Origin: Promethearchaeota archaeon
Lineage (GTDB): Archaea; Asgardarchaeota; Lokiarchaeia; Sigyniarchaeales; SOKP01
Assembly (NCBI GenBank): GCA_048939995.1
Contig: JBHLOY010000006.1
Location: forward strand, 32,001-96,000
DNA: 64,000 nt
Direction: 5' to 3'
Below the pieces are notes generated by a model, which was given only the letters and a program-made list of their open reading frames with translations, made no database searches and was not told the origin of the DNA. Numbering within the stretch: position 1 is the stretch's first letter; the number at the start of each line of letters is the position of its first letter. Made by a program: the position numbers and the translations under genes. Shown in pieces: positions 6,309-45,585 of this stretch.

Positions 6309-6310
6309 TT

Positions 6311-7759: not shown

Positions 7760-8691
7760 TCATTTAAACTTAAAACAAATTGCGCTAAATTCTTTTTTTT
7801 ATCTAAATTTTCCATAATTGTGTTAAAACAATAAGCCTTTATACCTAAGTCTTGTATTTCAGGTTTTAAATGACAATCCTTATTATCGATTATTAAATGA
7901 CCTAAAAACTCTTGGTAATATTTTGCTACTCCTAAGCATGATATTTCTAAGTTTAGGAAGTTCATCAATTTATCTGCTGGTCCTTTAATAGGTTTTCCTT
8001 CAATAATGGGTGATATAGCAAACACTTTTTCCTTTGCTTCCTTTAATGCACTTCTGATTCCTTTAACTTGGAGAATAGTCCCTATTGAAACTACTGGATT
8101 TGATGGACAAATGATTATCTTTTTAGCCTTCTTAATATATCTTAATACCTCTTTTATTGGTTTTGCTTCTCCAATCCCTTTAAACTTCAATCCCTTAATT
8201 TCTGGTTCACAATTATACTTAATGTAATATTCCTCAAAATGTAGAGAGTTATTTTCCGTGATGATAGTTGTTTGAACATCTTCATTACACATTGGGAAGA
8301 GTTCAGCTTTTACATTTAATCTCTTACATATAATCGAAGTAATTTCTGCTTTATTAAATCCTTGCTTAAATAAATCAGTTCGAAATAAATGAGTTGCTAA
8401 GTCTTTATCTCCAAGATTAAACCATCCGTAATGATAATACTTTTTTAAGACATTTAAACAATTAAAAGTTTCATTTTTAAAACCCCATCCTTTTTGTTCA
8501 TCAATTTCACCTGCTAAAGTATAAGTTATTATGTCTATATCTGGACTAATTCTTAAACCAAACAATTCAATATCATCACCAGTATTTATTACAATTTTAA
8601 GGCTTTCCTGACTTATTACATGAGCTAATCCATCAATAAATTTTGCGGCGCCAACTCCACCAGCTAATACTACGTAACTAGTTTCTACCAT
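7756..8691 (-). CDS. cofD: 2-phospho-L-lactate transferase (F420 biosynthesis)
   Basis: LAGGVGAAKF, NTGDD, ISPDID, WFNLGDKDLATH, CPSNPVVSIG, KGPADKLM. Confidence 0.95.
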   Translation of the reverse strand: MVETSYVVLAGGVGAAKFIDGLAHVISQESLKIVINTGDDIELFGLRISPDIDIITYTLAGEIDEQKGWGFKNETFNCLNVLKKYYHYGWFNLGDKDLATHLFRTDLFKQGFNKAEITSIICKRLNVKAELFPMCNEDVQTTIITENNSLHFEEYYIKYNCEPEIKGLKFKGIGEAKPIKEVLRYIKKAKKIIICPSNPVVSIGTILQVKGIRSALKEAKEKVFAISPIIEGKPIKGPADKLMNFLNLEISCLGVAKYYQEFLGHLIIDNKDCHLKPEIQDLGIKAYCFNTIMENLDKKKNLAQFVLSLND

Positions 8692-10114
8692 ATTTAGATA
8701 ATTCTTTCTTTTCTAATTTATATATAACTTCATCTAAAGATATCCTTCTTGGTTTTATAGCCTTTCTTGTTGGATAACCAACGGTGAAGAATGCAAATGG
8801 ATAATAAGAATCTGGTAAATTCAATACATTCTTTACTATATTTTCAGTAAATAAGGGAGCACAATACCAACAAGCAGCCAACTTGTTTAATTCAAGACTA
8901 AGTAAAAAATATACTGCTGAGGCGCTCACGCTCTGAATTCCCATAATAAATTCATTTCGTTTACGTTCTTTATCAAAATAATTATCAAAACAATCTTTAT
9001 CCAAACATAAGAGAATAAGATAAGGAGCATTTAAGAATTGAGATCTTGTCTTTTCAATTTTTTTAATTATATAAGACTCAGATTTGCCGTCATTTAATAA
9101 ATCTATGCGTAATTTCTCATTCATTTTATTAATTAATCTTTCTCGAAGCTTATCTCTTTCTAGTATTATATAACGCCAATGTTGTCTATTATGGGCACTT
9201 GGTGCCCATCTAGCTATATCAATGCAATCTTCAATGATTTTTCTATCAACTAATTTAGAACTAAATTTTAATTTATAACTTCTTCGAGATTTTAAAATTT
9301 CGGTAAAATAAATATCTGAACTATCCACTCTGAATAAATCTGAAGCTTTTTCTCTCAAAATTAATGAGATAGAAGCCTTCTCTTTAATTTCAAATTTATA
9401 ACCTCTTATTAGTATAATAGGTAAACCTTCATCAGCTTCTCCCATAATTAATTGAGCTGCTGATGCTAAATTATCGACTTGACCTATAATTGTACTTTGT
9501 AATTCATATCCAAATAAATCTTGAGAACCTCGTTTATCTAGAATTGGATTAATACCTGAGACTCCTATTGCGACTCCTATTGCTCCATTTCTAAAAGGGC
9601 GACCGAAAGAATCGGAAATTATTATTGCTACATCCCTGCCAGTTAATCCCTTAAGGGAATCTCGAATCTTTTTAGCTTCTTTATCGGGATGTTCTGGTAA
9701 TAGGGTAACAATATTATCCCCTTTAACGTTAGATTTATCAATTCCAGCGTTTGCACAAATGAAACCATGTTTAGTTTCGACTATTAGAACATGTTCACTC
9801 CTCAAAATTGAATTTGATTCATCTAATATTACTTGAATAAGTTTTGGATCTTTAATGGGTAAATTGAATTCTTTTGCTTTAGGAAGTATTTTATCATAAA
9901 TCTGAATTGCTTTCTTGCTTGGTTTAACTTCTTTTAAATCTCTAGTTCTACCTATACTTTTTGACACTATAGTTTGTGCTATAACAAATATATCTTCATC
10001 CAGTAAGGAAATATTATTTTCAGTTAGTTTTTCTACAATTATTTTTGCAATATCATCCCCTTCTTTTATAAGAGGAATACCTTTCAACCCTATTAATTCG
10101 ACTTTATTATTCAT
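8678..10114 (-). CDS. cofE: F420-0:L-glutamate ligase fused to a C-terminal nitroreductase domain (FbiB-like)
   Basis: CANAGIDKSN, SDSFGRPFRNG, GEADEGLP; C-terminal SRRSYK, WAPSAHNRQHW. ATG 10114 preferred over the ORF-track start 10132 because it overlaps the upstream stop. Confidence 0.9.
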   Translation of the reverse strand: MNNKVELIGLKGIPLIKEGDDIAKIIVEKLTENNISLLDEDIFVIAQTIVSKSIGRTRDLKEVKPSKKAIQIYDKILPKAKEFNLPIKDPKLIQVILDESNSILRSEHVLIVETKHGFICANAGIDKSNVKGDNIVTLLPEHPDKEAKKIRDSLKGLTGRDVAIIISDSFGRPFRNGAIGVAIGVSGINPILDKRGSQDLFGYELQSTIIGQVDNLASAAQLIMGEADEGLPIILIRGYKFEIKEKASISLILREKASDLFRVDSSDIYFTEILKSRRSYKLKFSSKLVDRKIIEDCIDIARWAPSAHNRQHWRYIILERDKLRERLINKMNEKLRIDLLNDGKSESYIIKKIEKTRSQFLNAPYLILLCLDKDCFDNYFDKERKRNEFIMGIQSVSASAVYFLLSLELNKLAACWYCAPLFTENIVKNVLNLPDSYYPFAFFTVGYPTRKAIKPRRISLDEVIYKLEKKELSKYGRN

Positions 10115-11177
10115 AATTAGAAATAAATTCAATATATTTTTTCAAATCGGAATTTTTACTTTTCGCATATTCTTCAAACTGCGTGGGAATAGCGCAACAT
10201 GCAGAATAAAATTTAAATGATACATCTGGCGATCTACCCTTTAACCATTTCAAAGTCTGAATTGAAGGAATTTCGATTCGAGTGATTCCAGCTAAAATAG
10301 AATACTTTTCAATTTGCAATTTGACTTTTCCTCTTGGTCTCATACAACCCAGGGAAATTTCCGTATTAGGGAATACAAATCTAATTATAGCAATTATCTT
10401 AGCAATATCAATCGGGTTTGGATGAAGAAATTTCTTCTTTGACTCTTTAGGAGGTATTAATGCAATTAATACGATTAATGATGGATTTATCCCTGATTCT
10501 TTAATATATTTTATAGCTTCTAATTCTTTATTTAATTTTCCGTAATATAAGCCAACACAAATATGAGGAACAATATTTAAATTATATTTCCTTAAATAAT
10601 CAACGGAATTCTTATAATCTTCAAGATTCTTATTTAAATGATATATATCTCTAACAATTTCCTCGTCCATGCTTATATCAAAAGAAACTATATCCACTTT
10701 TGATTCAGCTAACTTTTTTGCGGTACTTTCATTTAATAGTCCTGTGTGAGTATTTATTATTAAATTTGTTTTGCTTTTAATTAGTTTAATTGTGTCTAAA
10801 AACTCTAATAAAGGCACTGATCCATCCGGTTCACACCCTCCAGATATTAATGCTCCAATACCGCCATTTTTGTAATGAGTTAACAAAAAATCTTCTAAAT
10901 CCTCTTTAGAAAGTATTCCCTTCATTCCATTGAGATACTTCTTATTGCAATGTTCACATTGTAAAGCGCAATCAGAGCCAGTAATGCTAATTGCGGGAAA
11001 CTTCATATTAGGAATATATACTTTCAATTGTTTCCCAAAGTTCTTGATCTTCAAGCCATAGGCAACTTTCAGAAAAGAATCTATATCTCTTGGTTTTAAC
11101 TGGATTAACTTCGAGTATTCTGACCAAGAAGACAACCCTTCTTTAAATTTCTGTAATAACCGCTTTAATTCATTCAT
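10107..11177 (-). CDS. lipS1: Radical SAM protein, archaeal lipoyl synthase LipS1-like
   Basis: SITGSDCALQCEHC (CX3CX2C), GCMRP and C-terminal CC motifs; next to a lipoate ligase; ATG 11177 overlaps the upstream stop. Confidence 0.8.
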   Translation of the reverse strand: MNELKRLLQKFKEGLSSWSEYSKLIQLKPRDIDSFLKVAYGLKIKNFGKQLKVYIPNMKFPAISITGSDCALQCEHCNKKYLNGMKGILSKEDLEDFLLTHYKNGGIGALISGGCEPDGSVPLLEFLDTIKLIKSKTNLIINTHTGLLNESTAKKLAESKVDIVSFDISMDEEIVRDIYHLNKNLEDYKNSVDYLRKYNLNIVPHICVGLYYGKLNKELEAIKYIKESGINPSLIVLIALIPPKESKKKFLHPNPIDIAKIIAIIRFVFPNTEISLGCMRPRGKVKLQIEKYSILAGITRIEIPSIQTLKWLKGRSPDVSFKFYSACCAIPTQFEEYAKSKNSDLKKYIEFISNYE

Positions 11178-11949
11178 ATTTCGCTGTCCATTTTTCATTT
11201 GAATATTTATCAATCATTAAAGACCTTGCTGTATCCATTTCATATTCAGAAAAATTACCATCTTCTAATTTGATGTATAAAGCAGACTCAAAACCTTGTT
11301 TTAATGACTGTAAAAAATTGTCTTCATCATAAATAATAAGTTGTTCTTTGATCCCTATACATTTGGAATAGACAGATCTTACCATTTTTGATTTTGATAC
11401 GTTACTGGGTGCTTTTAATACAGAATACATTAGTTCTGGATTAATTTCTAATAATATTGTACCATGTTGAAGAAGATAACCTTGCTTCCTAATTTGGGCA
11501 TTCCCTGAGAATTTTTTACCATTTAAAAATATAGCTGGACAATGTATAACTCCTTTTTCTGGCTTTAAACCATAATTGGTTAATCCTTTAATAATACCAG
11601 TTTCAATTAACTCAAATTGCTCAATTACTGTCTTAGCATTAAGATTTTCAAGAAATTTTAGGGAACATACAATTGAATATGTGATTTCGCCAGTCTCATC
11701 ATGAAAAACTGCTCCTCCTCCAGTAATTCTTCTTACAATATTAAAATCCTTCTGTTTAACTATCTGTAAATGTACCTCTGTTGAAAGACTTTGATTCCTA
11801 CCTATTGATATTGTTGATGGTTTCCATTTATAGAATCTAATTGTAAAAGGAGATATTCTATTAGTAACTGATCTTAAAATAGCTTCATCTAAAGCCATAT
11901 TCCAGTAACCATTTTCTGTCCGTAAAGGTATAAATCGCCAACTTTCCAT
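11170..11949 (-). CDS. Lipoate/octanoate-protein ligase catalytic domain (LplA/LipM family)
   Basis: NMALDEA, RRITGGGAVFHD, GKKFSGNAQ, LQHGTIL; no LplB-type C-terminal domain. Confidence 0.92.
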   Translation of the reverse strand: MESWRFIPLRTENGYWNMALDEAILRSVTNRISPFTIRFYKWKPSTISIGRNQSLSTEVHLQIVKQKDFNIVRRITGGGAVFHDETGEITYSIVCSLKFLENLNAKTVIEQFELIETGIIKGLTNYGLKPEKGVIHCPAIFLNGKKFSGNAQIRKQGYLLQHGTILLEINPELMYSVLKAPSNVSKSKMVRSVYSKCIGIKEQLIIYDEDNFLQSLKQGFESALYIKLEDGNFSEYEMDTARSLMIDKYSNEKWTAKYE

Positions 11950-23476: not shown

Positions 23477-23848
23477 TTAATCTAATAAATCAGCAATTCT
23501 TTTTGCAACACTCTGGATATTGAGGAAAACCATGCCTAAACTTGCATTAGCATGACATAAAGTACAAAGAATTGCATTTTCCCCAGCTTTAGAAAGAATA
23601 ATGATACCACTCACACCTTCAATGAGTATCCTTTTAAGCTCGCCTCTATCAAGTTCTTCCACCGCACGCTCCGAAACACTTTGTATAGCTGCCGACATGG
23701 CCGAAACTATCCCATCATTAACATCTCGACTCAAAACAGAGCAGATCGGAAGTCCCTGTACACTAACAATCGCAGACCCTTCTATATCAGAATTGACAGC
23801 AGATAATTTTCTTAGGAGATCTGTAAGTTCACTGATATTTTCAGACAA
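23477..23848 (-). CDS. Roadblock/LC7 (MglB-like) protein
   Basis: IEGSAIVSVQGLPICS, VSAMSAAI, ELDRGELKRILIEGVSG, LGMVFL; TTG start with GGAGG upstream. Confidence 0.92.
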   Translation of the reverse strand: MSENISELTDLLRKLSAVNSDIEGSAIVSVQGLPICSVLSRDVNDGIVSAMSAAIQSVSERAVEELDRGELKRILIEGVSGIIILSKAGENAILCTLCHANASLGMVFLNIQSVAKRIADLLD

Positions 23849-25086: not shown

Positions 25087-26193
25087 ATGAAAAGATTGAA
25101 AATTGCCCTAATTACACTAGCTATTTCTCCAGATAAGCAAGATGGTAGTGCAAAATTTTTTTCTGGAATCTATGAATACTTAAAAAGTAGAGGCCATAAC
25201 GTCCGAGTTATAACTGGAAGATGGAATTATAATCTAAATGATCCAAATATATCACAAATCAGAATCATGCGGAAGAGCTATTTATGGATTCCTCAATTTA
25301 TATCAAAAGTAGTTAATCTTTTAAGAACTAATGATTTTGATATTATCCATGGAAATGGTCCTAAAGGTACATTACCTCTTCTTTTTTCTAATAAAAAATT
25401 CCTCTCAACAATTCATGATTTAGGCCCTATTGAATCAAGCTTTTCGATGATCCCAATCGAAAAGTTAATTATTAATAAGGTTGTTAAAGAGGCTAAAATC
25501 ATTACAACATGTTCAGAATTTACTAAATGGCAATTAGAAAGTTATTTCCCTAAAATTGAACCTGGCAAAATCTATAACTTGTATTCTGCTATTGAAAGTA
25601 AATTTAAGCCTTATCCAATAAAAGCAAAAGAACTTCGAAAAAATTTAGGGTTAAAGGGGCCCGTGGTTTTATATATAGGCAGAATTGCTCTCTATAAAGA
25701 TGTTGAAAACATCATTAAAGCTTATACGTATGCAAAAAAAGAAATTAAAGATCTTGAATTGATAATTGGGGGATCTCCAGATTTTTATATGAAAGAAGCA
25801 TTCAAAAAGTGGAAGCAAAGTTATAAAGACGTTCACTTTATGGGATTTATTAAAGAACAAGAACTTCCTTATTATTATAGCATGGGAGATGTATTTATAA
25901 CATATTCATATTCTTCAGAAGGATTTGGATTAACTCCTATAGAAGCAATTGCATGCGGTACTCCTGTGATATCTTCCTCAATAGGGGCTTATAAGGAAGT
26001 TCTTCAAGATAATGCTATTTTTGTACCACCTAAAAATCCAAAACTCTTAAGTCAAGAAATCGTTGATTTACTTAACAACGATAATAAACGAATAAACTTA
26101 TTAAAAAAAGCTCAACATTTTATATCCCGATATTCTTGGAATTATGTTGGAAAAAAATTGGAAGAAGCTTATCAAAATTTCTTAAAAGCTTAG
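25087..26193 (+). CDS. Glycosyltransferase family 4
   Basis: IGRIALYKDV, EGFGLTPIEAIACGTPVI (EX7E motif). Confidence 0.92.
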   Translation: MKRLKIALITLAISPDKQDGSAKFFSGIYEYLKSRGHNVRVITGRWNYNLNDPNISQIRIMRKSYLWIPQFISKVVNLLRTNDFDIIHGNGPKGTLPLLFSNKKFLSTIHDLGPIESSFSMIPIEKLIINKVVKEAKIITTCSEFTKWQLESYFPKIEPGKIYNLYSAIESKFKPYPIKAKELRKNLGLKGPVVLYIGRIALYKDVENIIKAYTYAKKEIKDLELIIGGSPDFYMKEAFKKWKQSYKDVHFMGFIKEQELPYYYSMGDVFITYSYSSEGFGLTPIEAIACGTPVISSSIGAYKEVLQDNAIFVPPKNPKLLSQEIVDLLNNDNKRINLLKKAQHFISRYSWNYVGKKLEEAYQNFLKA

Positions 26194-26319
26194 AAAATTC
26201 AAACTATAGAGATTAGCTATTGATACTAGTTAAAATATAAATTTAGTAATAAAAGAATATAAATTATGTTTAATTTCTTAATGTCAAATTTTATTTATTA
26301 TTACTAGAAAAATATACCA

Positions 26320-27684
26320 ATGATTCTAATAACGCAATTAAATTGGGGAATTTTTGAAATTATATCCTTAATCATAATTTTTGTTGGGGGATTTCTATTT
26401 ACTTATTTTATTATTCCATATATCATTAAACTGATGAAAAAAAAAGGATTTACTGGGATTGATATCCATAAAAATGACAAACCAGAAATCCCTGAATCGG
26501 GGGGTTTAAGTATTCTCTTTGGATTAACTTTAACTACAATATTATCATTCATTTTTTTTCCAATTCTATTTAATGAATTAATGATATTTTTATTAACAAT
26601 ACTATTATCGGGAGCAATTGGCTATATTGATGATCGAAAAAAGTTAAGATCCCGATACAAAATTCTACTCACAATTTTCACAGGGGTAGTAATTTTTGTA
26701 GCAAATTTCTTTGGTTATATTAATATTCAATCCCCTACAATACCAATCCTCGGAGAAACGAGATTAACTAGAATCTACCCTGTTATCGTTCCGTTAATTG
26801 TAGCTATTTTAACTAATACATCGAATATGTTAGAAGGTTATAACGGAGAAGGAGCCGGTACGTCTTTGATTGCACTAATTTTTTTGCTAATTTGTGCTTT
26901 TATATGGAATTCGTCTGAAGCATTAGTATTTATAATATCTGGAATCAGTGTTTTAATCCCATTCTTCCTATTTAATAAATACCCTGCAAAAATCTTCCCG
27001 GGTGATGTAGGTACTTTAACTATGGGGGCATTATTTGCTTGTATAGCATTATTGGGATCATTAGAAGTCGCTGTGTTTAGTGCATTATTGATTCATTTTT
27101 TTAATAGTTTTTTTGTTATTAGTTCTGTTAAAGGATTTCTAGAAAGTAGTGAAATACAAGGACAAAAGAGTGATATAATCCTCATGAATGATGATTTAAT
27201 TACAGCCTCCGAAGAAAAGAGGGCAGCGCTAACATTACCACGCTTAATTTTAGCCAAAGGGCCCTTAACAGAACCTCAATTAATAAAAAATTTTTTGATC
27301 ATTTCTGTCGTATGTGGGTTATTTTCAATTGTTTCAATGATATTTATCCATTGGACCTTAAATAATATAGATTTAGCACCATTAATTATATCTGTAATAA
27401 TTACTTTAGTTATAATCACTATTATATTATACATCTTCCCAAGAGTAAGGGGTATTGTCATGTTAATGATAACTTTTTTAGGAATCATTATCATACTTTT
27501 GATTTTTATTGATTCAATTATCATGGAGATTTTTTATCAAGATATTGATTTAGGATTTATAAGAATACCAACTAATATTATCTTCTCTATTATGTTTATA
27601 GTACCATGTCTAGCATTATGGTACTATTTAACAATCAGATATTTCTGGTCTCAAATCAAAAAAATAAAGTATAAAAAAGCCTGA
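26320..27684 (+). CDS. aglH: UDP-GlcNAc:dolichyl-phosphate GlcNAc-1-P transferase (AglH/Alg7/DPAGT1 family)
   Basis: GIDIHK, IPESGG, IGYIDD, NMLEGYNG, FNKYPAKIFPGDVGT. Confidence 0.85.
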   Translation: MILITQLNWGIFEIISLIIIFVGGFLFTYFIIPYIIKLMKKKGFTGIDIHKNDKPEIPESGGLSILFGLTLTTILSFIFFPILFNELMIFLLTILLSGAIGYIDDRKKLRSRYKILLTIFTGVVIFVANFFGYINIQSPTIPILGETRLTRIYPVIVPLIVAILTNTSNMLEGYNGEGAGTSLIALIFLLICAFIWNSSEALVFIISGISVLIPFFLFNKYPAKIFPGDVGTLTMGALFACIALLGSLEVAVFSALLIHFFNSFFVISSVKGFLESSEIQGQKSDIILMNDDLITASEEKRAALTLPRLILAKGPLTEPQLIKNFLIISVVCGLFSIVSMIFIHWTLNNIDLAPLIISVIITLVIITIILYIFPRVRGIVMLMITFLGIIIILLIFIDSIIMEIFYQDIDLGFIRIPTNIIFSIMFIVPCLALWYYLTIRYFWSQIKKIKYKKA

Positions 27685-27701
27685 ATTAAAAATCTTTATG
27701 A

Positions 27702-28805
27702 TTATTGGGGAATTCTTTCTGTTATGTTCTTAAAACATATTTCATTCGGATTTTCAAAATCTTTAAGTCTATTTCTAAAATTTCTCGAAAAATGATTAGG
27801 TTTTGGGTTAATTGATAAAATTTCAATTGCTTTTTCAGCAACTTTATTATATTGTTTAATATGAACTAACGGAAAATTGTTCCTCATTAAGAACAGTTCT
27901 TGGGGTGCTGAATCTCCGGGAAAAAATTCAATACTTGGTACATCTAATAGGCTTGATTCACGAACGATTGTTCCTCCCCCACTAATAACTAAAGCAGAAT
28001 AGAAACAAAGATTAGTCATATTAGGTAAATAACGTGTCAAAATAATGTTTTTATTTTGCAGATAATCTCTTAATCTAACTTTAAGATAATTTTCTTGCTG
28101 ATTTGTTCTAGTGATAATGAAGTATTTTAGGTTAGGAAATTCCTTAAAAATTTGAGGAAAAAAATCAGAAATTAATGTCTTTTCAGGTTCAAGTTTGGAT
28201 AAAAAATAACTTGCGAAACTAGGTTCGCTTCTGATAATAATATATTGTCCCTTTTCAATATCAAACTTTTTAAGTGCCTCAAAGTTAGGCTGAAATTCCA
28301 ATAACCATGCGATCTCATCAATTCCATTATATCTAATGAGTTTTTCTGGATTTGCATGAAGTTTTATATACCAATCTTTCGGTACACACTCAGGAGTTAT
28401 TATTTTATCTATATAGGGAAAAAGTAATTTACAAACATGAACATTCCTTGGTTCGTCATTATAGCCAATAGATGGGATATTTAAGCCATAAGAGATTCTT
28501 GCCCCTTCAAGAGAAGAAAAGGTTATAAAAAATTCTGGTTCAAATTCGGAAATATATGGATATAAACCTCCTAATCTCTCAATGTATGCTTTCAATTTCC
28601 CATTCAGCTTTGCACCTCCATGTCTCCCCACTTTTATATAATTTATTTCTAAATCGTCTAAGATTTGGAAAGTCGAGTCATAATCTCTAGCAGTGATTAA
28701 AAGGGAGGCTCCTTCATCCTCTAGTTTGGTGATTAGAGAATTAAACATTATTGCTGTTTTAGGTTCTTCAATATCAATCCAAATCTTTTTATTATCTAAG
28801 CTCAT
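27702..28805 (-). CDS. DUF354 family GT-B fold protein
   Basis: IWIDI, ITARDY, VGRHGG, SGGGTIVRESSLL; ATG 28805 (ORF track TTG 28838). Confidence 0.8.
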   Translation of the reverse strand: MSLDNKKIWIDIEEPKTAIMFNSLITKLEDEGASLLITARDYDSTFQILDDLEINYIKVGRHGGAKLNGKLKAYIERLGGLYPYISEFEPEFFITFSSLEGARISYGLNIPSIGYNDEPRNVHVCKLLFPYIDKIITPECVPKDWYIKLHANPEKLIRYNGIDEIAWLLEFQPNFEALKKFDIEKGQYIIIRSEPSFASYFLSKLEPEKTLISDFFPQIFKEFPNLKYFIITRTNQQENYLKVRLRDYLQNKNIILTRYLPNMTNLCFYSALVISGGGTIVRESSLLDVPSIEFFPGDSAPQELFLMRNNFPLVHIKQYNKVAEKAIEILSINPKPNHFSRNFRNRLKDFENPNEICFKNITERIPQ

Positions 28806-28840
28806 TAAATCAGCATTTAAATATTTATCCCATTTCAAAT

Positions 28841-29584
28841 TTAGGTAAATTTTTTTAAAAATTTTGCTGGATTACCTACTATCACATCATTCTCAGCAGT
28901 ATCTTTTACTACTACAGCTCCAGCTCCAACAATAGTTCCCTTTTTTAGAGTTATGTCCGGTAAAATTACAGAATTTGCCCCAATTGATACAAAATCTTCA
29001 ATATTTGCGCCTTTTAAACGAAAATCTTTACGTTTCATATATTTATCATTAGTTAATTTGCAATAAGGACCCATGAAAACATTATTTCCTATTTTAGAAA
29101 ATAATGGGATATATACCCCTGTTTGAATACTTACATCATTTCCAATATTTACATTACCATCGATGACGCAATTAGTCCCTACTAAAGAATTTTTCCCGAT
29201 TCGTGTTTTTTCTCGAATTAACACATTGTGCCCTGTCTGGCAATTATCACCAATTATAACCTCTGAGTATATTATTGAACTTGCTCTTATTGTGCAATCT
29301 GACCCTATAGATAACATCGGTCCTTCAAAATCATTAATTTGTTGTTTGCCTTCAATTATTTGCTTCAAAACATTCCTTTGGGGATGCCCTATAATGCAAT
29401 TCTCCCCTATATATGATCCTTTCTTTATGAATGCTTTTCCATAGATTTTTACACCCTTAGAAATATAAACATCTTTTTCTATCTTTACACCTTTTCCAAT
29501 CACAGTAAAATTATCTATAAATGCATCTTGGTGGATTTCTGCTTCAGAATGAATGATTGATAATTCTTGATTAGCCCTAATCAA
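28841..29584 (-). CDS. Hexapeptide-repeat (left-handed beta-helix) acyltransferase, nucleotide-sugar N-acetyltransferase-like
   Basis: Repeated IGxxxx units, FMGPYCKLTNDKY, GAGAVVVKD, VGNPAK. Confidence 0.9.
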   Translation of the reverse strand: MIRANQELSIIHSEAEIHQDAFIDNFTVIGKGVKIEKDVYISKGVKIYGKAFIKKGSYIGENCIIGHPQRNVLKQIIEGKQQINDFEGPMLSIGSDCTIRASSIIYSEVIIGDNCQTGHNVLIREKTRIGKNSLVGTNCVIDGNVNIGNDVSIQTGVYIPLFSKIGNNVFMGPYCKLTNDKYMKRKDFRLKGANIEDFVSIGANSVILPDITLKKGTIVGAGAVVVKDTAENDVIVGNPAKFLKKFT

Positions 29585-29756
29585 TGTATCTCATATATTC
29601 ATTTTTGTATTTAATTTATTTAAATAAAAATTATTTTATTAATTTTCACATAAAAATTTGTTCTGTAGATTTACTAAATTCTAAATTTTAGATAAACTAC
29701 CACGATCATTTGAGCGAATGATTAAAAGAGGTTAAATTGGTTTAATCATAAAATTG

Positions 29757-30050
29757 TTAGTTCTCACATTGACATGGATTTTTTCCACACTTATTACATT
29801 GATTAGGATATTTCTCAATTAAGGCTTCTTCTAAATCAATATCCAGTAAATTTGCGATTGAAATCGTCCATGCTACAATGTCTGCTAACTCTTCAGAAAT
29901 CTTTTTGACTGGCATTTCCTTCTCTTTTAACAGGTTGGCTAGTTCTCCAATTTCCTCAACTAACCAAATAAAACTGTTTCTAATTCCTCTTTTATAATCT
30001 TTTTTATAGTATAAGGTTCTTATCAAATTTTGAAAATCTGAGATCCTCAT
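29757..30050 (-). CDS. MazG-like nucleotide pyrophosphohydrolase
   Basis: WLVEEIGELA, EELADIVAW, C-terminal CNKCGKNPCQC. Confidence 0.9.
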   Translation of the reverse strand: MRISDFQNLIRTLYYKKDYKRGIRNSFIWLVEEIGELANLLKEKEMPVKKISEELADIVAWTISIANLLDIDLEEALIEKYPNQCNKCGKNPCQCEN

Positions 30051-30097
30051 ATTAACACTTCTTTAAGAAAAACTGATAAGAATTCTTTGAACTTATC

Positions 30098-30316
30098 TTA
30101 CCCAAAACTGAATAACCAATTAAAAACACGCAACCAAGCAAGTATAACTATCAGTATTAAAGCAACAGCAAATATTATTGTTGAAATCGGACCTACTTTA
30201 ATTCCAATCGAACTGTCTTCAAAAAACCGCATTAATCCTGCTCCACCCATAGGCATAGGAGCGCTTCCACTTCGTCTTTTTCTACGTCTTGATTGAGATT
30301 TTCTTTTAGTTGACAT
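30098..30316 (-). CDS. secG: Protein translocon subunit Sec61beta (archaeal SecG)
   Basis: Basic N-terminus, GAGLMRFFED..GIKVGP, single C-terminal TM. Confidence 0.93.
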   Translation of the reverse strand: MSTKRKSQSRRRKRRSGSAPMPMGGAGLMRFFEDSSIGIKVGPISTIIFAVALILIVILAWLRVFNWLFSFG

Positions 30317-30465
30317 AATTAGATTTTATATTTTTAATTTATATTATTTAAAGATAAAATTCGAATTATATTAAGTTTTATTCCGAAATATAAAAAAAAA
30401 TTAAATAAATTTTTATTAATAATTTTAATTATTCTTAGTTAACTTTTGGAGTAAGTTAAAAATAA

Positions 30466-32316
30466 ATGTTTAGATTAAAAAAAATTTTTGTTGTAATTAT
30501 TGGACTTCTTATTCTTACACTTTTAATTTCATCAATTAACATAAATTCTAAGACTAATATTCAAAATAATAATCAAAATACAAATCTGGAATTATCAAAC
30601 AGCTTGGAAGGAGCTGAAAATGTATTAATTACTGAAATAATAAGAAACGTAAATATTAGTCGATATGGCTTGGTGCACATTGAAGATATATTAATTGTTT
30701 TAAATAAAAATAACAACCCTATAACTTCAATTTCAATTGGAATACCTAAGGAAAAGTTTTCTGATTTACTATACATCCAAGCTAAAGATTCCGGAGAAGA
30801 ATCTCTTCTAACTGAGAGAGCCAATTTTGAGATCAATGATTTTAGAATGGTTATAATCTATTTTGATACACCATTGTTGTATCAACAAGATACTACGATC
30901 TTTATCATGCAAACCTATAATTACTTAGTATCGTTTGAAACGTCTGGTTCAGAACAGAATATAAATCTTACCTCTTTTGTATTTCCAATTCTCCCCTATA
31001 AAGCAAATGGGGAAAATATTAAAACAATTGTTAGAACTCCTCAAGACTCAACGATTATTGAATTTGAGAAGATTGACACAATGGGGGGTGAAATTTCACC
31101 TGGGATTCTTTTATATGATTTAGCTTCAAGTCTGACAATTGAATATTTGGAACCATTTTTAGTTAATCTTCCTGATGAAAGTAAGGAAATTACAATTATT
31201 TTTCAGAACATTCAGTATATAAAATTAGAAATAGAAACAATCAATCGAGATATAAATATTCTACCATTAGGTATAATTAAGATTAAGGAAGTGCTTTTGA
31301 TTCAGAATACTGGAGCTGTTCCTATCTATAATTTTGATTTTAAGATTCCCTCTCACTCTAAAAATCTGCGTGTCTTTGATAATATTGGAAATCTGGCAAT
31401 AACGACAACAGAATCCAATTCAGATCACAAAAGCATTGAAATTAATCTATTACGAAACAGAGTAGGTATTTCACCCCTTTCTAAATTTGAATTTACTGTA
31501 GAATATAACTTACCTTTCGACGATTACATCTCTCTGAATTGGTTTCAACAATCATTTCAAATAGACTTAATGATAACTAGATATCCCTTTCTAGGAAATA
31601 ATGAATTTATTAATATAATTATTGAAGGTTGTGGTAATTTAGACTTCATCTCTTCCCTACCCGACGCGATTATAGATTCAGAAGGATCTAAAATTCTTAT
31701 TTATAACTTAAATGATGTGAGTCCATTGGAATCCAATTTAATCCAGATTACCTTTGCTATTGATTTATTTGACTTACTTCTTCGACCTATGATAATTGTG
31801 ATTATCATTACCTCTATCTCATCATTTTATGTAGTTTTCATAAAATTAAGTAAGAAAAAGGAGGGGGTCTCGATTATTGAAAGAGACGTGAAGGTTTTAA
31901 ATGAACTTAGAGAATTTTGCGCTTTATTTGAGGAAAAAAATGCTCTTATGTTAGAAATTAGAAAAGCAGAAGAGAATTTAAAGCGTAAAAAAGTTACAAA
32001 AAAGGCTTTTTCAAATATTTCTGATAAAAATTCAGCTAAAATAGAGCAAATTAAACGTGAAATCATTCCATTCAAAAAGACTTTAATGGAGTCGAACGAA
32101 ATTTTTAATAATATTATTAATAAATTAGATTTAATGGATGCTGAACGAATTTCTGTAAATGATAGTTTAACATTACTCGAAAATCGATATAAACGAGGAA
32201 AATTGGAGTCAAAAGCAGTTTATCAGAAATTATTGGAGGATTTTATGAAGAGAAGAAAAAGAATTGATCGCACGATTGATAAATTTATACAACAACTTAG
32301 AAGTTATTTATTATAA
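30466..32316 (+). CDS. Ribophorin I (OST1/RPN1)-like protein
   Basis: Signal anchor; two repeated lumenal domains (IIRNVNISRYGLVHIED / INRDINILPLGIIKIKE; VFDNIGNL); TM at LLRPMII; cytoplasmic helical bundle. Confidence 0.75.
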   Translation: MFRLKKIFVVIIGLLILTLLISSININSKTNIQNNNQNTNLELSNSLEGAENVLITEIIRNVNISRYGLVHIEDILIVLNKNNNPITSISIGIPKEKFSDLLYIQAKDSGEESLLTERANFEINDFRMVIIYFDTPLLYQQDTTIFIMQTYNYLVSFETSGSEQNINLTSFVFPILPYKANGENIKTIVRTPQDSTIIEFEKIDTMGGEISPGILLYDLASSLTIEYLEPFLVNLPDESKEITIIFQNIQYIKLEIETINRDINILPLGIIKIKEVLLIQNTGAVPIYNFDFKIPSHSKNLRVFDNIGNLAITTTESNSDHKSIEINLLRNRVGISPLSKFEFTVEYNLPFDDYISLNWFQQSFQIDLMITRYPFLGNNEFINIIIEGCGNLDFISSLPDAIIDSEGSKILIYNLNDVSPLESNLIQITFAIDLFDLLLRPMIIVIIITSISSFYVVFIKLSKKKEGVSIIERDVKVLNELREFCALFEEKNALMLEIRKAEENLKRKKVTKKAFSNISDKNSAKIEQIKREIIPFKKTLMESNEIFNNIINKLDLMDAERISVNDSLTLLENRYKRGKLESKAVYQKLLEDFMKRRKRIDRTIDKFIQQLRSYLL

Positions 32317-32351
32317 ATTTCAAATCTATTTTATTGAATTGGTTAATATAA

Positions 32352-32975
32352 ATGAAGCCTTGGTTATTTGATGTCTTAGCTTGTCCTATTGATAAACATT
32401 TTCCTTTAGAATTATATATTTTTTCATATGCTAACAAAATTGGTGACTTTGAATCTTTTTTAAATGTGTATAAACAAAGAGATTTAGAAGTTATTAAAAA
32501 AGATTCGATAATTAAAATCTATAAGGAGGGTGAAATCGTATATATTAGTGATGGTATTGTATTGGAAAAAACTCCTTTCGATAGATACATTGAGCTATTG
32601 CTATCAAGTATTAATGAACTTAATTATATTAATGATCAATCCAAAGATAAAATAAGTGGGTTATGTTTTAATCTAATCAAGAATGAAATTAGAGAAAAGC
32701 TAATAGAATTTTTAAAAAATTTTGCTGCAAAAAAAGTTGAAAATCTAATCCCTGAATTTTTTTTTGTTAATAAAATTAAACTTGAGGTAGAAATAAATTC
32801 TGGACTATTACTCTGTCCAAAATGTAAACGCTGGTATCCTATAATTGATACAATTCCGCAAATGCTCCCTGATGAGTTTAGAAACAGAACTAAGGAGCTT
32901 GAATTCTTAAAAACCAACAAGAATTTATTGAATGATGAATTCTTTAAACAAGATTTAAAACCTTTTAATATATAG
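32352..32975 (+). CDS. Trm112-family methyltransferase activator with long insertion
   Basis: N-terminal LFDVLACPIDKHFPL; C-terminal GLLLCPKCKRWYPIIDTIPQMLP. Confidence 0.85.
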   Translation: MKPWLFDVLACPIDKHFPLELYIFSYANKIGDFESFLNVYKQRDLEVIKKDSIIKIYKEGEIVYISDGIVLEKTPFDRYIELLLSSINELNYINDQSKDKISGLCFNLIKNEIREKLIEFLKNFAAKKVENLIPEFFFVNKIKLEVEINSGLLLCPKCKRWYPIIDTIPQMLPDEFRNRTKELEFLKTNKNLLNDEFFKQDLKPFNI

Positions 32976-33000
32976 AATTCAACTATTTATTGATGAAGAG

Positions 33001-33073
33001 AGCCCGGTGGTGTAGCGGCCAAGCATATGGGGCTTTGAACCCCGTGACCACGGTTCGAATCCGTGCCGGGCTA
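33001..33073 (+). tRNA. tRNA-Gln(UUG), intronless, CCA not encoded
   Basis: Acceptor AGCCCGG/CCGGGCT plus discriminator A; anticodon arm TGGGG-CTTTGAA-CCCCG; T loop GGTTCGAATCC; A1:U72 typical of archaeal tRNA-Gln. Confidence 0.97.
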
Positions 33074-33140
33074 TCTCATTCTAAAAAGAATCTATTCTCC
33101 TAATAAAGTTTAATATAGATGAGTTTTTCAAGAACTTAAT

Positions 33141-34082
33141 ATGTTAAATAAATTGAGGAGTATTCTCAACCTCTTGAGAATAAGACAATACTATAAAAAT
33201 GCTTTGATATTTGTGGGAATTTTCTTTAGCGAAAGGTTATTCGATTTTTCCTTGTATTTTTCTCTAATTATAGGTTTTATCTTGTTATGTTGTGCATCAT
33301 CATTTAATTACATCATAAATGATATTCGAGATATTAAATATGATAGAAACCATCCAGAGAAATTAAAGAAAAAACCTCTTGCATCAAAAGAACTTTCAAT
33401 ATTATTCGCGATTATAATTCTATTCATTATAATAGGTATTATCATTCCTTCTTTCATTTATTTAATACCAAACTTGTATTTTGCTTTAATGTTAATTCTA
33501 ATTATCGTAACTGGTCAGCTTTATAACCTTTTTTTAAAAAATTATGCATTTGTTGATATTCTAACTCTTTCTTTGGGTTATTTATGGCGAGCTTTAGCAG
33601 GATGTTTTTTAATTAAAGAATATGTTTCTGCATGGCTATTTTTAGCAATTTTTGAAGTAGCACTTTTCTTGGGAATAGCAAAAAGAAGAGGAGACTTGAA
33701 TTATCTTGGTGAACAAAAAGCAATAGAACATAAAAAAGTCTATAAATATTATTCTGTAGAGTTATTAAACCAGTTTTATATTATTATATCAAGTTGTCTT
33801 TTCATGACATATTCACTCTATCTGATTTTTAACTTTGAATTATTTGATCCTAGCAGTGTCAACCTTTATGAATATATTGCAGTCTTTACAATTCCAATCG
33901 CTTTATACATTATAATGCGGTATAATTATTTAACTACCACAAAACCAAAAGTAGCCCGAAGTCCCGAAAAAGCATTTTTTGATAAGGGTATTATTATCTC
34001 CGCGTTTATCTTATTCTTAATATTGATTCTTTCTTTTTATTTTGACCAATTCATTGAATTCTTTAATTCAATATTAACATAA
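33141..34082 (+). CDS. UbiA-superfamily protein, polyprenyl-phosphate phosphoribosyltransferase-like
   Basis: RIRQYYKNALIF, YIINDIRDIKYDRNHPEK, KRRGDL. Confidence 0.8.
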   Translation: MLNKLRSILNLLRIRQYYKNALIFVGIFFSERLFDFSLYFSLIIGFILLCCASSFNYIINDIRDIKYDRNHPEKLKKKPLASKELSILFAIIILFIIIGIIIPSFIYLIPNLYFALMLILIIVTGQLYNLFLKNYAFVDILTLSLGYLWRALAGCFLIKEYVSAWLFLAIFEVALFLGIAKRRGDLNYLGEQKAIEHKKVYKYYSVELLNQFYIIISSCLFMTYSLYLIFNFELFDPSSVNLYEYIAVFTIPIALYIIMRYNYLTTTKPKVARSPEKAFFDKGIIISAFILFLILILSFYFDQFIEFFNSILT

Positions 34083-42129: not shown

Positions 42130-43302
42130 ATGACTTCAGTGAACCCTCAAGTTTTTGTACTTAAAACAAAACCCGCCTCTGTTTTAAATGACTATAAGAT
42201 ATTACTCAATATGGCAGAATATCAGAAATTTTATAGTAAACAAGAAAAAATTCTTATTAAGTTAAATTTGAGTTGGTCTAAATTCTTTCCTGCATGTTCA
42301 AGTCCGCCATGGCAATTAGAAGGTGTTATCAAAACTATGGTTGAGGATGGGTATGATCCTCATAAATTATTTACAGCAGAAAATAGAACAGTAGTGACCA
42401 ATATTGAAAAAGGATTGAAAGGAAATCGTTGGTGGCCTATATTAAAGAAGTACAATGCATGGTTTATCCCTTTAACTCGAATTCCTTTTATTCCATATGA
42501 ATCTCTAAAGCCTAAATTCTTGAACTTAAAGAAACAAGAATTGCTTGTTTTAGATTCAAAAGTGTTTCCTGAAGGATTTCGAATCCCTGAATTTTATGTA
42601 GGAAAGTCTATTATTCACCTTCCAACTATGAAAACACATGGACATACTGGGGCAATTGGAGGCTCTTTAGAATATACTGAGAGCGAAATGAAACATGGAG
42701 GTATAACCTGTGCTATGAAAAACGCTTTTGGTGGCTTACTTACTAAAAGAAGACATTTTTCACATCAGTATATGAGTGAAGTGCTTGTTGATTTATTAAT
42801 AATTCAAAAACAGATTCATCCAAATATCATGGCTGTGGTTGATGGAACTGTTTGTGGCGATGGGGCAGGACCAAGAACCATGATACCAAGAATTAAAAAT
42901 TATATTTTAGCAGGATATGATCAAGTTGCTGTAGACACTGTGGTCGCCAGAATGATGGGTTTTGATCCTTTTAAGCTGCCCGCCATTAAATTAGCTCATG
43001 ATATGGGATTAGGATGCGGAGATTTCAATCAAATTGAAATAATTGGGGAGGATGTATCAAAAATCAATTGGAATTTTAGAGTAAAAAGGAGTCTAGTAAT
43101 TTGGGGGGATCAAATGGTAAGGAAAGGACCGCTACAATTCATCTACCCCTTATTTAAAAATGAGCTCTTTTTTATTGGTCCAATTATGGCTTCTATGATA
43201 TTTCATGACATGATCTGGTATCCTACAATTGGAAAGCGAAGGATAAAGCAATTTATTAAGACAAAATGGGGGAAACTATTCACAACTTATCCTGTTAATT
43301 AA
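42130..43302 (+). CDS. DUF362 family protein
   Basis: ILIKLNL, LPTMKTH, TCAMKNAFG, AVVDGT, DQVAVD. Confidence 0.8.
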   Translation: MTSVNPQVFVLKTKPASVLNDYKILLNMAEYQKFYSKQEKILIKLNLSWSKFFPACSSPPWQLEGVIKTMVEDGYDPHKLFTAENRTVVTNIEKGLKGNRWWPILKKYNAWFIPLTRIPFIPYESLKPKFLNLKKQELLVLDSKVFPEGFRIPEFYVGKSIIHLPTMKTHGHTGAIGGSLEYTESEMKHGGITCAMKNAFGGLLTKRRHFSHQYMSEVLVDLLIIQKQIHPNIMAVVDGTVCGDGAGPRTMIPRIKNYILAGYDQVAVDTVVARMMGFDPFKLPAIKLAHDMGLGCGDFNQIEIIGEDVSKINWNFRVKRSLVIWGDQMVRKGPLQFIYPLFKNELFFIGPIMASMIFHDMIWYPTIGKRRIKQFIKTKWGKLFTTYPVN

Positions 43303-44383
43303 ATTGCTTTCCTTTTTTAGCAAAGTAAAAAGCTAATTTCCCAATTTGTACTTTAATAGAAATTTTTGAACCGAACTTATTATAAAGAATTTTAAATAAT
43401 AGCCCCATTAGGCTGACTGTGATTAATATATAGATCCATATATTTATTGTGTTTAATTGTTTATAAAATAAAAAATACAATACATTATGGATAAAGTAAA
43501 TTGTAAGGGAATAAAATGAATAAAAAAATAAGAAATGGTAGCTTCTTTTTAATTTAAGCACTTTAAATTCTTCAAAAATAAATAATATTGAAAATAGCGT
43601 TAAGTCAATTCCTAAAGTGTAAATTGTCCAAGAAAAACTTCGGTTAATTAGAAAATTAGGATAAAATATCACAATTCCGACAAAAATTAAAAATAGACCT
43701 GAAATTAAGGTAGGGTATATAAATCTTTTTTTTATAGTCCTTTTTAAATCCTCTTCATCCTTAATACGATAGATTTTAAATAGAATTTCTCCTATTACAG
43801 TTCCAAACAAAAAAAAAGGAAAGAATGTAAGAATAACATCAAGATCACGGCTGTGATATAGAATATGAAACATAATTCCATATACATTTAATTGATTTTG
43901 ATAAGGGAACAAAAAGAATAATAAGACCTGATTTAAAATCCAAATAATAAAACCAATGGCAATCCTAATCCAAATTGGCAATTTCATTAAAAACCATCCA
44001 AGAATAAGAGAAATTGATACCGTTAGTAATACAAACCATGTCCATATCCATAATGGATTCAGAATTGCTGCTGCTATACTAATATTGTACATAATTGCCA
44101 ACAAGAAGATTAATAAGGCTCTAAAAAAGTATTCTCTTTTAATCATTTGAGGTTTATACTCATCGTTAAGTTGTGCTTTAATAAACCTCTGACGAACAGA
44201 TAATACCGCAGTTAAGCCTGCTATGAAGATAAATGCTGAAGAGCCAATTGGATCGACTATTGTAAAAGATAAATTATAGAGCCATAAATCTGAATCTCTT
44301 AACCACCAATTCTGAAGATGACCAACGAACATCCATAACATGCTCAATCCGCGAAATGTATCAATACTTTTTAAGCGTTTCAT
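43295..44383 (-). CDS. HGSNAT-catalytic/DUF1624-type membrane acyltransferase
   Basis: RLKSIDTFRGLSMLWMFVGH, SLTIYFIH; polytopic. Confidence 0.8.
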   Translation of the reverse strand: MKRLKSIDTFRGLSMLWMFVGHLQNWWLRDSDLWLYNLSFTIVDPIGSSAFIFIAGLTAVLSVRQRFIKAQLNDEYKPQMIKREYFFRALLIFLLAIMYNISIAAAILNPLWIWTWFVLLTVSISLILGWFLMKLPIWIRIAIGFIIWILNQVLLFFLFPYQNQLNVYGIMFHILYHSRDLDVILTFFPFFLFGTVIGEILFKIYRIKDEEDLKRTIKKRFIYPTLISGLFLIFVGIVIFYPNFLINRSFSWTIYTLGIDLTLFSILFIFEEFKVLKLKRSYHFLFFYSFYSLTIYFIHNVLYFLFYKQLNTINIWIYILITVSLMGLLFKILYNKFGSKISIKVQIGKLAFYFAKKGKQFN

Positions 44384-44439: not shown

Positions 44440-45585
44440 TTAATTAAACTTTTCCTTTAAATTATACTTAAAATACGGTTTATTAGGTTTAATTAAATCG
44501 ATTTTTCTAGCAAAAAAGATAGCTGATTTATTAATAAGAAATTTTAAAGAAATATATTTTTCCCAATTTTTATGAAGAATACGAAATAACAATGTCCATA
44601 TAATTATTATTGGGATTATTAGAAACCAAATTTGCATACTATTAAATTGTGGTTGAAATAGGAAAAATAATAGATGGTGTGAGAGGAACATTGTAAAAGA
44701 ATAGAAAGAATAAAATTCAAAGAACTTATAACTTCTTTTTAACTTAAATCTTCTATAATCTTTTAAAAAGACTAAAAACGCGAAGATCAAAAACTCAAAT
44801 CCAAGTATAAACATATGGGATGAAAATGTTTCTTTATTTGCAATATTTGGAAATTTATAACCTAATCCAAAAAATATTAGAATGAAACCTCCAATTATGA
44901 TAGGTTTGAATAACTTATTCTTTAAATAAGAGTGTTGCTTCTCCAAATTATTTATTCTTCCCGCATCAAACAAAATATCTCCGATCACAGTTCCCAAAAG
45001 TAGAAATGGAAAATATCCAAGAATTACATTTTGTTCGGGGCTGTTGTAAAGGAAATAGAAAAAATATCCAAGAATATTCTCTTGTCCAGCATAAGGAGTC
45101 AACCACACATATATAAACTCATTACTAATCCAACTAATAAAACAAATAAATATTCGAAATATCTTAGACGTTTTTAAAAGTGGCCATACCATTAGAAGAG
45201 AAATTGAGATAGTTTGTAAAACAAACCATAACCATACCCCGGGCAAGCCCATATATATAGTTCCTATAGTATTCCATATCATAGAGATAAATAAAATCAA
45301 TGAAGCTCTAATAATATATTCATTTCTAATTGTTTTCAAACTAAACTCTTGATTATTCTGAGCTTTCACCAATCCTCTTTTATATAAAAGTGCTGCACTC
45401 ATCCCAGAGACAAGTAGGAAACCACCTCCTCCAAAAATAGCTCCATAATTCCATATTACCTCATAAAGCCAAGTATCTGTTGGAGAAATCCACCAATAGA
45501 TCATATGTCCAAAAATCATATAAAAAATACAAAGTCCTCTAAATATATCAACACTTTTGAACCGAGTCATAGTTAATTTTATCAC
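44440..45585 (-). CDS. HGSNAT-catalytic/DUF1624-type membrane acyltransferase (tandem paralog)
   Basis: RFKSVDIFRGLCIFYMIFGH; collinear similarity to 43295..44383. Confidence 0.8.
   Translation of the reverse strand: MIKLTMTRFKSVDIFRGLCIFYMIFGHMIYWWISPTDTWLYEVIWNYGAIFGGGGFLLVSGMSAALLYKRGLVKAQNNQEFSLKTIRNEYIIRASLILFISMIWNTIGTIYMGLPGVWLWFVLQTISISLLMVWPLLKTSKIFRIFICFISWISNEFIYVWLTPYAGQENILGYFFYFLYNSPEQNVILGYFPFLLLGTVIGDILFDAGRINNLEKQHSYLKNKLFKPIIIGGFILIFFGLGYKFPNIANKETFSSHMFILGFEFLIFAFLVFLKDYRRFKLKRSYKFFEFYSFYSFTMFLSHHLLFFLFQPQFNSMQIWFLIIPIIIIWTLLFRILHKNWEKYISLKFLINKSAIFFARKIDLIKPNKPYFKYNLKEKFN

Follow-up and report, generated by a model that had tools for sequence, protein, structure and literature searches.

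Gene neighbourhood of an Asgard archaeal ribophorin I/Ost1 orthologue and its links to glycan-donor enzymes and Sec61 subunits

A gene for ribophorin I/Ost1 (RPN1), known as an accessory subunit of the eukaryotic oligosaccharyltransferase (OST), was found in a block of genes at positions 25087-34082 of a 64,000-nucleotide stretch of a Promethearchaeota archaeon genome (the window; contig JBHLOY010000006.1 of assembly GCA_048939995.1). It stands head-to-head with the gene for the translocon subunit Sec61beta and close to genes for enzymes of glycan-donor synthesis. The window belongs to a Lokiarchaeia-type Asgard archaeon. It is part of contig C23 of a genome of 3.75 Mb which is 98% complete, and its G+C content is 26-36%, mostly about 29%. 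All of the open reading frames (ORFs) and the tRNA gene of the block were found exactly where an initial annotation, made from the letters of the sequence, had placed them, and are as follows, with lengths in amino acids (aa):

25087-26193 (+): glycosyltransferase of family GT4, 368 aa (Pfam Glycos_transf_1 113.7 bits; also Glyco_transf_4)
26320-27684 (+): AglH/Alg7-type polyprenyl-phosphate GlcNAc-1-P transferase, 454 aa (PF00953 107.5 bits)
27702-28838 (-): DUF354 protein, 378 aa (PF04007 134 bits)
28841-29584 (-): left-handed beta-helix sugar N-acetyltransferase of the hexapeptide type, NeuD/PglB/VioB-like, 247 aa (Hexapep 116 bits)
29757-30050 (-): small MazG-type nucleoside triphosphate pyrophosphohydrolase, 97 aa (PF03819 37.3 bits)
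30098-30316 (-): Sec61beta, 72 aa, tail-anchored (PF03911 44.2 bits, cut-off 27)
30317-30465: divergent intergenic spacer between Sec61beta and RPN1, 149 bp
30466-32316 (+): ribophorin I/Ost1 orthologue, 616 aa (PF04597, profiles and predicted fold)
32352-32975 (+): Trm112-like zinc-ribbon protein, 207 aa with an insertion of about 125 aa (PF03966 40.3 bits, aa 5-166)
33001-33073 (+): tRNA-Gln(UUG) (ARAGORN)
33141-34082 (+): UbiA-family polyprenyl-phosphate transferase, 313 aa (PF01040 59.9 bits)

The GT4 and AglH genes form a pair that converges on the DUF354 gene, with the facing ends at 27684 and 27702, and the 149-bp divergent intergenic region between Sec61beta and the ribophorin-I-like gene was verified in the sequence; both arrangements are as first described. 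The Sec61beta protein has a basic N-terminus and a C-terminal hydrophobic membrane helix, and it gives 47.6 bits with the NCBIfam Sec61beta model, under the 55-bit cut-off of that model. Its gene is single-copy, with one match in the genome.

The ORF at 30466-32316 is an Asgard orthologue of ribophorin I/Ost1, an identity which we regard as secure. A default hmmscan of this 616-aa ORF gave no Ribophorin_I match even at E<=10, and the Pfam and NCBIfam results were both empty. The Ribophorin_I profile match that the initial annotation had named as a check was obtained by a permissive whole-genome search with PF04597, in which the ORF gave two collinear matches of 34.5 bits (profile positions 3-229) and 16.1 bits (257-435) at a cut-off of 25; no control genome was found above the cut-off in this search. 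A total of 103 close homologues were found when a database was searched with the ORF, all of them from Asgard archaea ('Promethearchaeota'), and most of these carry a precomputed PF04597 match, yet are annotated as 'hypothetical protein'. The profile A1, made from 21 of the 103 homologues, matches human RPN1 with an E-value of 3.9e-9, and the profile A3, made from one representative of each of 19 Asgard families, aligns with the full length of human RPN1 at 5e-45 and reaches 2.2e-26 for yeast Ost1. Twelve of the 19 family representatives match PF04597 under default hmmscan, the best of them at 4.6e-32. Among the Asgard genomes sampled, RPN1 is present in 234 of 301, and in 82 of the 90 high-quality ones.

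The AF2 model of the 616-aa protein (mean predicted local distance difference test, pLDDT, 82.3) has a hydrophobic helix at the N-terminus, strands over residues 53-432 and a long helix from residue 434. The predicted architecture has, in order, a signal or anchor at the N-terminus, a pair of outer domains with a beta-sandwich fold, a membrane helix at about residues 434-460 and a cytoplasmic bundle at about residues 470-616; as modelled, Asgard Ost1 is a type I membrane protein with both beta-sandwich domains on the outer side, a single helix through the membrane and a helical bundle of about 150 aa in the cytoplasm. In Foldseek, the eight highest-ranking PDB matches of the model all come from RPN1 or Ost1 in human and yeast OST structures (E-values from 2.5e-31 to 3.3e-21, target template-modelling score, TM, 0.56-0.74), and the ribophorin fold, the absence of which had been named beforehand as fatal to the assignment, is thereby present in the model. 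In E-value, the next fold trails these matches by over ten orders of magnitude, with integrins and aminopeptidase domains among the weaker matches. The tail of the protein, residues 468-616, aligns to the solved cytoplasmic domain of OST1 from MK-D1 (Prometheoarchaeum syntrophicum; 8WHN) with an E-value of 1.8e-32, 44% identity and a TM of 0.83. The cytoplasmic domain was found to be the best conserved part of the protein, with a mean identity of 67% compared to 43-46% for the outer domains, a pattern in the alignments that agrees with a conserved partner in the cytoplasm, for example the ribosome.

The features shared with eukaryotic RPN1/Ost1 (human OST-A, 6S7O and 8B6L; yeast, 6EZN) are the N-terminal signal, the two beta-sandwich domains, which are lumenal in the eukaryotic protein, and the single membrane helix. 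The cytosolic helical bundle is shared with mammalian RPN1, whereas yeast Ost1, which aligns over about 430 residues, does not have the bundle found in the Asgard protein. The identity to the eukaryotic proteins is 13-16%, and the Asgard protein would sit in the cell membrane and not in the endoplasmic reticulum (ER). The OST1 of MK-D1 is a direct orthologue, although it comes from another family of the same order. The RPN1 tail of one complete genome (G210) was found to be without the peptide motifs of 8WHN.

Ost1, Ost3/6 and STT3 have been reported in Asgard archaea since 2017, and further subunits of OST and of TRAP, the complex of translocon-associated proteins, were reported in 2023 (PMC10307638). 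According to Eme 2023, the OST partner subunits other than Ost5 and Ost4 are restricted to Heimdallarchaeia. Carilo et al. 2024 describe the crystal structure of the MK-D1 OST1 cytoplasmic domain (8WHN), the localisation of the protein and a pull-down of human ribosomes by this domain (PMC11417166), and gene context was not found in the portion of that text which was searched. Ost1 has also been stated to be absent from MK-D1 (PMC11284389), contrary to Carilo et al.; the two reports probably conflict because default hmmscan misses orthologues of this kind. That default Pfam scanning overlooks the present Ost1 orthologue also explains gaps in annotation.

The gene context of RPN1 was compared in the following samples. 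The first consists of 80 species-level loci from the window's own family (f1), in which RPN1 is 41-74% identical and onto which the proteins of the window were mapped. The second is the sister family f2, which belongs to the same order as f1 and in which RPN1 is 26-29% identical. For the third, about 16 kb around RPN1 were fetched outside f1 from 60 genomes in 20 families and were scanned with hidden Markov models built from the 80 f1 loci. Genes within about 7 kb of RPN1 were taken as neighbours, and the entries for f1 were counted from its 80 loci. Exact-sequence look-ups assigned f9 to Thorarchaeota, f7 to Ca. Heimdallarchaeum, f21 to Ca. Freyarchaeum deiterrae and f24 to a lineage of metagenome-assembled genomes within Heimdallarchaeota.

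The association of RPN1 with the initiation of lipid-linked glycans, first noted in the window, recurs in many Asgard families and in varied arrangements. In nine of 20 families, AglH was found no more than 7 kb from RPN1, namely in f1, f2, f3, f9 (13 of 13), f14 (10 of 10), f15, f18, f21 and f28. It is head-to-head with RPN1 at a distance of about 165-175 bp in f9, f21 (Freyarchaeum) and f28, whereas in f14 it is co-directional with RPN1 and an oxidoreductase, a TrmB regulator and the acetyltransferase intervene. This genome has no PF00953 gene other than AglH, and the same holds for four of five distant genomes, so that AglH is single-copy in five of the six genomes checked, and by a rough estimate the proximity of RPN1 and AglH would occur by chance in about 0.5% of genomes. 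As an internal control, unrelated neighbours from the window (the M24 peptidase, MazG, UbiA and a solute-binding protein) were located close to RPN1 in no order but that of the window; Roadblock, a further control gene, gave one extra, distant match in family f23. As the AglH-RPN1 link recurs in different arrangements, it is therefore more than local inheritance. The glycosylation context of Ost1 is old and has been kept through rearrangement, which we read as selection for the linkage and which in turn supports the view that Asgard Ost1 takes part in N-glycosylation.

The other glycan-related genes show narrower distributions near RPN1, the acetyltransferase being found in f1, f7, f12, f14, f16, f18 and f29 and DUF354 in f1, f2, f18, f21 and f29. 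In f14 the genes between AglH and the acetyltransferase-RPN1 pair encode a GFO/IDH/MocA sugar oxidoreductase (L098 9990-10961) and a TrmB-type sugar regulator (L098 11059-11889). A PMT_2 transferase, of the glycosyltransferase C (GT-C) type and dependent on dolichyl-phosphate-sugar, adjoins AglH in f18 (L103 12420-13952). The Trm112-like gene was found near RPN1 in nine families (f1, f2, f8, f9, f15, f18, f20, f21 and f24) and is the most widely conserved neighbour of RPN1. A tRNA-Gln(UUG) gene lies directly 3' of the Trm112-like gene in some loci of f1, f2 and f9 (window 32352-33073; L090 11253-12080; L116 9463-9983).

Within the window's order, Sec61beta and RPN1 stand directly head-to-head in 76 of the 78 f1 loci having upstream sequence, and the two exceptions (L069 and L078) carry an inverted MazG gene between the two. 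The spacer measures 140-160 bp in nearly all of 72 related loci. The pair was also found in all four informative genomes of the sister family f2; in the fifth genome, the contig stops 270 bp past RPN1. On the other side, the Trm112-like gene is downstream of RPN1 in all 80 f1 loci, and the UbiA gene is downstream in 56 of them. The GT4 gene occurs near RPN1 in 67 of the 80 f1 loci and also in f2, 29 of the 80 have the acetyltransferase, and MazG always adjoins Sec61beta in this order and not elsewhere. The upstream side of the block in f1 is made up of DUF354, GT4, the M24 peptidase and the Roadblock gene, and AglH keeps the upstream position that it has in the window in 10 loci but sits downstream of Trm112 in the majority. 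In the window itself the Roadblock/LC7 gene is at 23477-23848 (-), and throughout the order its place upstream of the block is conserved.

A link between RPN1 and a different translocon subunit was found in the Heimdallarchaeota lineage f24. In six of the six f24 genomes in which both genes could be placed, RPN1 and SecY/Sec61alpha are arranged head-to-head, with Trm112 on the other side of RPN1, and the SecY protein gives 219.8 bits plus a match to the plug domain. Examples of these loci are:

L105: gene pair at 7745-9802 (-) and 10349-11854 (+)
L123, L139 and L149: gene pair at 5234-7300 / 7855-9372

A second SecY is present in three nearly complete f24 genomes. The two copies in one of them (G259) are 83% identical, and neither was seen beside ribosomal protein genes within the stretch fetched. 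The Sec61beta pair and the separate SecY pair of f24 are consistent with Ost1 working at the translocon.

In Thorarchaeota, RPN1 is a longer protein of 981-983 aa (L116 5499-8450 (+)) in which the ribophorin domain is preceded, towards the N-terminus, by an FKBP isomerase domain at aa 146-230 and by a bacterial Ig domain at aa 342-411. Equivalents of this FKBP-RPN1 fusion were found in all 13 f9 loci and in L104, with ORFs of 985-1230 aa in other f9 and f28 loci. The name given at NCBI to the Thorarchaeota RPN1 mentions the FKBP isomerase only.

The initial annotation had further proposed that a multi-subunit OST is co-located with these genes, with DC2-like and DPM2-like genes of the window extending the set. 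The co-location did not hold, as AglB/STT3 and Ost5 were found on other contigs and the OST3/OST6-like gene is 22 kb away. The single STT3/AglB match in the genome (G000:C11:157290-158471 (-)) lies in an unusually long open frame of 1308 aa, and this gene is unlinked to any other OST gene found. Ost4 was sought in this genome and not found, and no OST3/6 gene was seen near RPN1 in the loci examined. The two small membrane proteins named in the window are:

54431-54943 (-): OST3/OST6-family protein, membrane part only, DC2/OSTC-like short form, 170 aa (PF04756 34.5 bits, cut-off 27)
61016-61339 (-): small membrane protein proposed as DPM2/PIG-P-like, not established (PIG-P 16.7 bits, cut-off 39.3; DPM2 16.7 bits, cut-off 27.3)

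The DC2-like gene proved sound in that its OST3_OST6 match is above the cut-off. The match covers profile positions 178-288 only, i.e., the membrane part, and the protein is without the thioredoxin domain. The assignment of 61016-61339 to DPM2 or PIG-P was rejected, with 16.7 bits for each being under the cut-offs of both PF07297 and PF08510, and a whole-genome search for DPM2 gave no match at E<=1.

The enzymes encoded around RPN1 were compared with solved structures and protein families. The closest solved relative of AglH is human DPAGT1 (E 5.5e-10), followed by MraY (8.4e-7), which in sequence terms makes it a GlcNAc-1-P transferase of the eukaryote/archaeal branch. With its 454 aa, the AglH of the window differs from eukaryotic ALG7/DPAGT1 (6FM9 and 6BW5) by an added C-terminal two-helix membrane module at about aa 410-450. 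A gene for a two-helix membrane protein of about 95 aa lies directly downstream of a short AglH of about 340 aa in three families (L099 5680-5991, L103 11051-11329 and L100 12834-13121). These small genes share homology with each other (E-values of 2e-12 and 2e-5) and weakly match the C-terminus of the long AglH in the window and in f14, so that a fusion or fission of a partner subunit of AglH may have taken place.

The AF2 model of the DUF354 protein (pLDDT 89.9) has the glycosyltransferase B (GT-B) fold. Its top Foldseek matches are UDP-GlcNAc and UDP-2,3-diacetamido-glucuronate (UDP-diNAc-GlcA) 2-epimerases (E about 1e-14, TM 0.6-0.72), and the family profile matches the epimerase 4hwg at E 6.7e-5. 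Most Asgard archaea are without the Alg13/14 partner (PMC8993221). The DUF354 protein was considered as the missing Alg13/14-like second-step transferase and this assignment is not firm, the fold being nearer to UDP-sugar 2-epimerases than to MurG or Alg13/14. The acetyltransferase gives 108.8 bits with the NCBIfam model NeuD_NnaD, below the cut-off of that model. The UbiA protein gives 179.7 bits with NCBIfam DPPR synthase, under the cut-off of 234, and matches PDB 8j8j at E 4.8e-20; owing to this resemblance to decaprenyl-phosphate phosphoribosyltransferase, it probably also acts on a polyprenyl-phosphate carrier. Taken together, the sequences of AglH, the DUF354 protein, the acetyltransferase and the UbiA protein fit the synthesis and modification of a lipid-linked glycan donor. 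The Trm112-like protein gives 51 bits with NCBIfam Trm112_arch, below the cut-off of 77, and its matches to human TRMT112 are weak.

The agl clusters of archaea such as Haloferax and Methanococcus, which are found around aglB, group the glycosyltransferases of the N-glycan donor with sugar-modifying enzymes. The neighbourhood described here differs from these in that AglB is unlinked and the cluster holds Ost1, an accessory subunit of the eukaryotic type, together with Sec61beta in the window's order.

We consider it probable that Asgard Ost1 belongs to an old and conserved N-glycosylation neighbourhood, the members of which are the single-copy AglH/Alg7, GT4, the epimerase-like DUF354, the NeuD-like N-acetyltransferase and the UbiA transferase, and that it acts as an accessory subunit putting AglB at the SecYE-beta channel. 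In the mechanism that we infer, Ost1 would form a complex with the oligosaccharyltransferase AglB and place it beside this channel, and its cytoplasmic bundle would contact the translating ribosome of the native host, as RPN1 does in the eukaryotic OST-A complex. The expression of Ost1 would be coordinated with that of Sec61beta and of the glycan-donor enzymes. Several observations weigh against this. When the coordinates of RPN1 and Sec61beta were compared in 45 genomes of 18 families other than f1 and f2, the two were adjacent in none of them, being on different contigs or 17-250 kb apart. Because they are never adjacent in these genomes, the pairing is specific to one order; it is young, is restricted to f1 and f2, and may be a lineage-specific accident of gene order. 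The conservation of gene order expected by the initial annotation thus stood within the window's order, and across the phylum for the AglH link, and failed for the Sec61beta pair beyond the order. Genes with unrelated functions (MazG, Trm112, M24 peptidase and Roadblock) are equally conserved within the order. No conserved promoter motif was found among 72 orthologous spacers anchored on either start codon, the spacer being 87% A+T and too A+T-rich to be read for motifs; the only enrichment was a weak one of G at positions -11 and -17 relative to the ATG of RPN1, which may mark a ribosome-binding site. AglB/STT3 was found within about 7-8 kb of RPN1, or up to the contig end, in none of 140 loci, and in this genome Ost5 is on contig C19 and SecY is 61 kb from RPN1. 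In f5, f10, f11, f17 and f23 none of AglH, Trm112-like, acetyltransferase and DUF354 was found near RPN1. Finally, genomes of the same family are not independent, so that our counts overstate the number of evolutionary events.

Some of these points are what would be expected if the gene order were inherited synteny without functional meaning, Sec61beta, MazG, RPN1 and Trm112 having stayed unseparated since the ancestor of the order while each kept its own promoter. The restriction of the Sec61beta adjacency to f1 and f2, the unrelated genes conserved in the same block and the lack of a shared promoter motif found in the spacer all suit this explanation. We nevertheless hold it to be somewhat unlikely, since the pair and its 140-160-bp spacing outlast rearrangements in which AglH moved, the acetyltransferase was gained or lost and MazG was inverted (L069 and L078), and since RPN1 and AglH are linked in nine families in different arrangements and RPN1 is linked to a different Sec61 subunit in the Heimdallarchaeota lineage. 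Asgard Ost1 might alternatively be mainly a factor associated with the ribosome or translocon, such as a receptor or a folding platform, and be largely independent of glycosylation by AglB. We judge this to be unlikely; the commonest conserved neighbours of RPN1 are the glycan-donor enzymes AglH, the sugar acetyltransferase, DUF354 and GT4, and every solved eukaryotic RPN1/Ost1 belongs to an OST complex. The explanation does draw on the high conservation of a cytoplasmic domain of the ribosome-binding type, the fusion of the FKBP folding catalyst to RPN1 in Thorarchaeota, the pairing of RPN1 with Sec61 subunits in two lineages and the fact that AglB/STT3 was never linked to RPN1. That the 616-aa ORF is an unrelated surface protein made of beta-sandwich domains and a coiled-coil tail is highly improbable. 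Default hmmscan assigning no Pfam family and the integrin and aminopeptidase domains among the weaker folds would be in line with it, yet the collinear, full-length matches to human RPN1 and yeast Ost1 by profile and by fold, together with the match of the tail to 8WHN, effectively refute it.

The role of Ost1 as an accessory subunit of AglB can be extended, as a tentative possibility that we doubt more than we believe, to an OST-A-like machine for co-translational glycosylation at the Asgard cell membrane. The Ost1 bundle would dock the ribosome by SecYE-beta, the outer domains would hold AglB (and the fused FKBP in Thorarchaeota) where the channel opens to the outside, and glycan-donor synthesis by AglH would be coordinated with this site or recruited to it. 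If this were true, the Sec61beta-Ost1 pair of Lokiarchaeales, the SecY-Ost1 pair of the Heimdallarchaeota lineage and the AglH-Ost1 pair of Thorarchaeota, Freyarchaeum and others would be independent traces of a supercomplex that predates the ER.

The origin of the eukaryotic translocon formed by the ribosome, Sec61 and OST is an open question of eukaryogenesis. Prior knowledge of Asgard Ost1 consists of sequence surveys and one structure with a heterologous pull-down (PMC11417166). The gene context provides independent evidence on that origin, as Ost1 is tied to the first enzyme of the N-glycan donor across much of the phylum and to Sec61 subunits in two separate lineages, and the link between translocon and glycosylation is directly testable in cultured Lokiarchaeales. 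The RPN1 gene itself was already known; its conserved gene context is new genomic evidence in favour of a glycosylation role at the channel, and the added value is moderate. The RPN1-Sec61beta, RPN1-AglH and RPN1-SecY neighbourhoods were not found in the literature searched, which leaves prior publication possible.

Besides the Roadblock/LC7 protein, two other proteins of the window have small eukaryote-like domains. The protein at 56630-57736 (+) has C-terminal matches to PHD/RING-like zinc fingers that are sub-threshold (PHD 20.6 bits, cut-off 24), and a protein with two SH3 domains is encoded at 58567-58914 (+). Elsewhere in the window, an operon for an oligopeptide ABC transporter is followed by two tandem genes for membrane acyltransferases (43295-44383 and 44440-45585 (-)), both with a match to the catalytic domain of HGSNAT (heparan-alpha-glucosaminide N-acetyltransferase).

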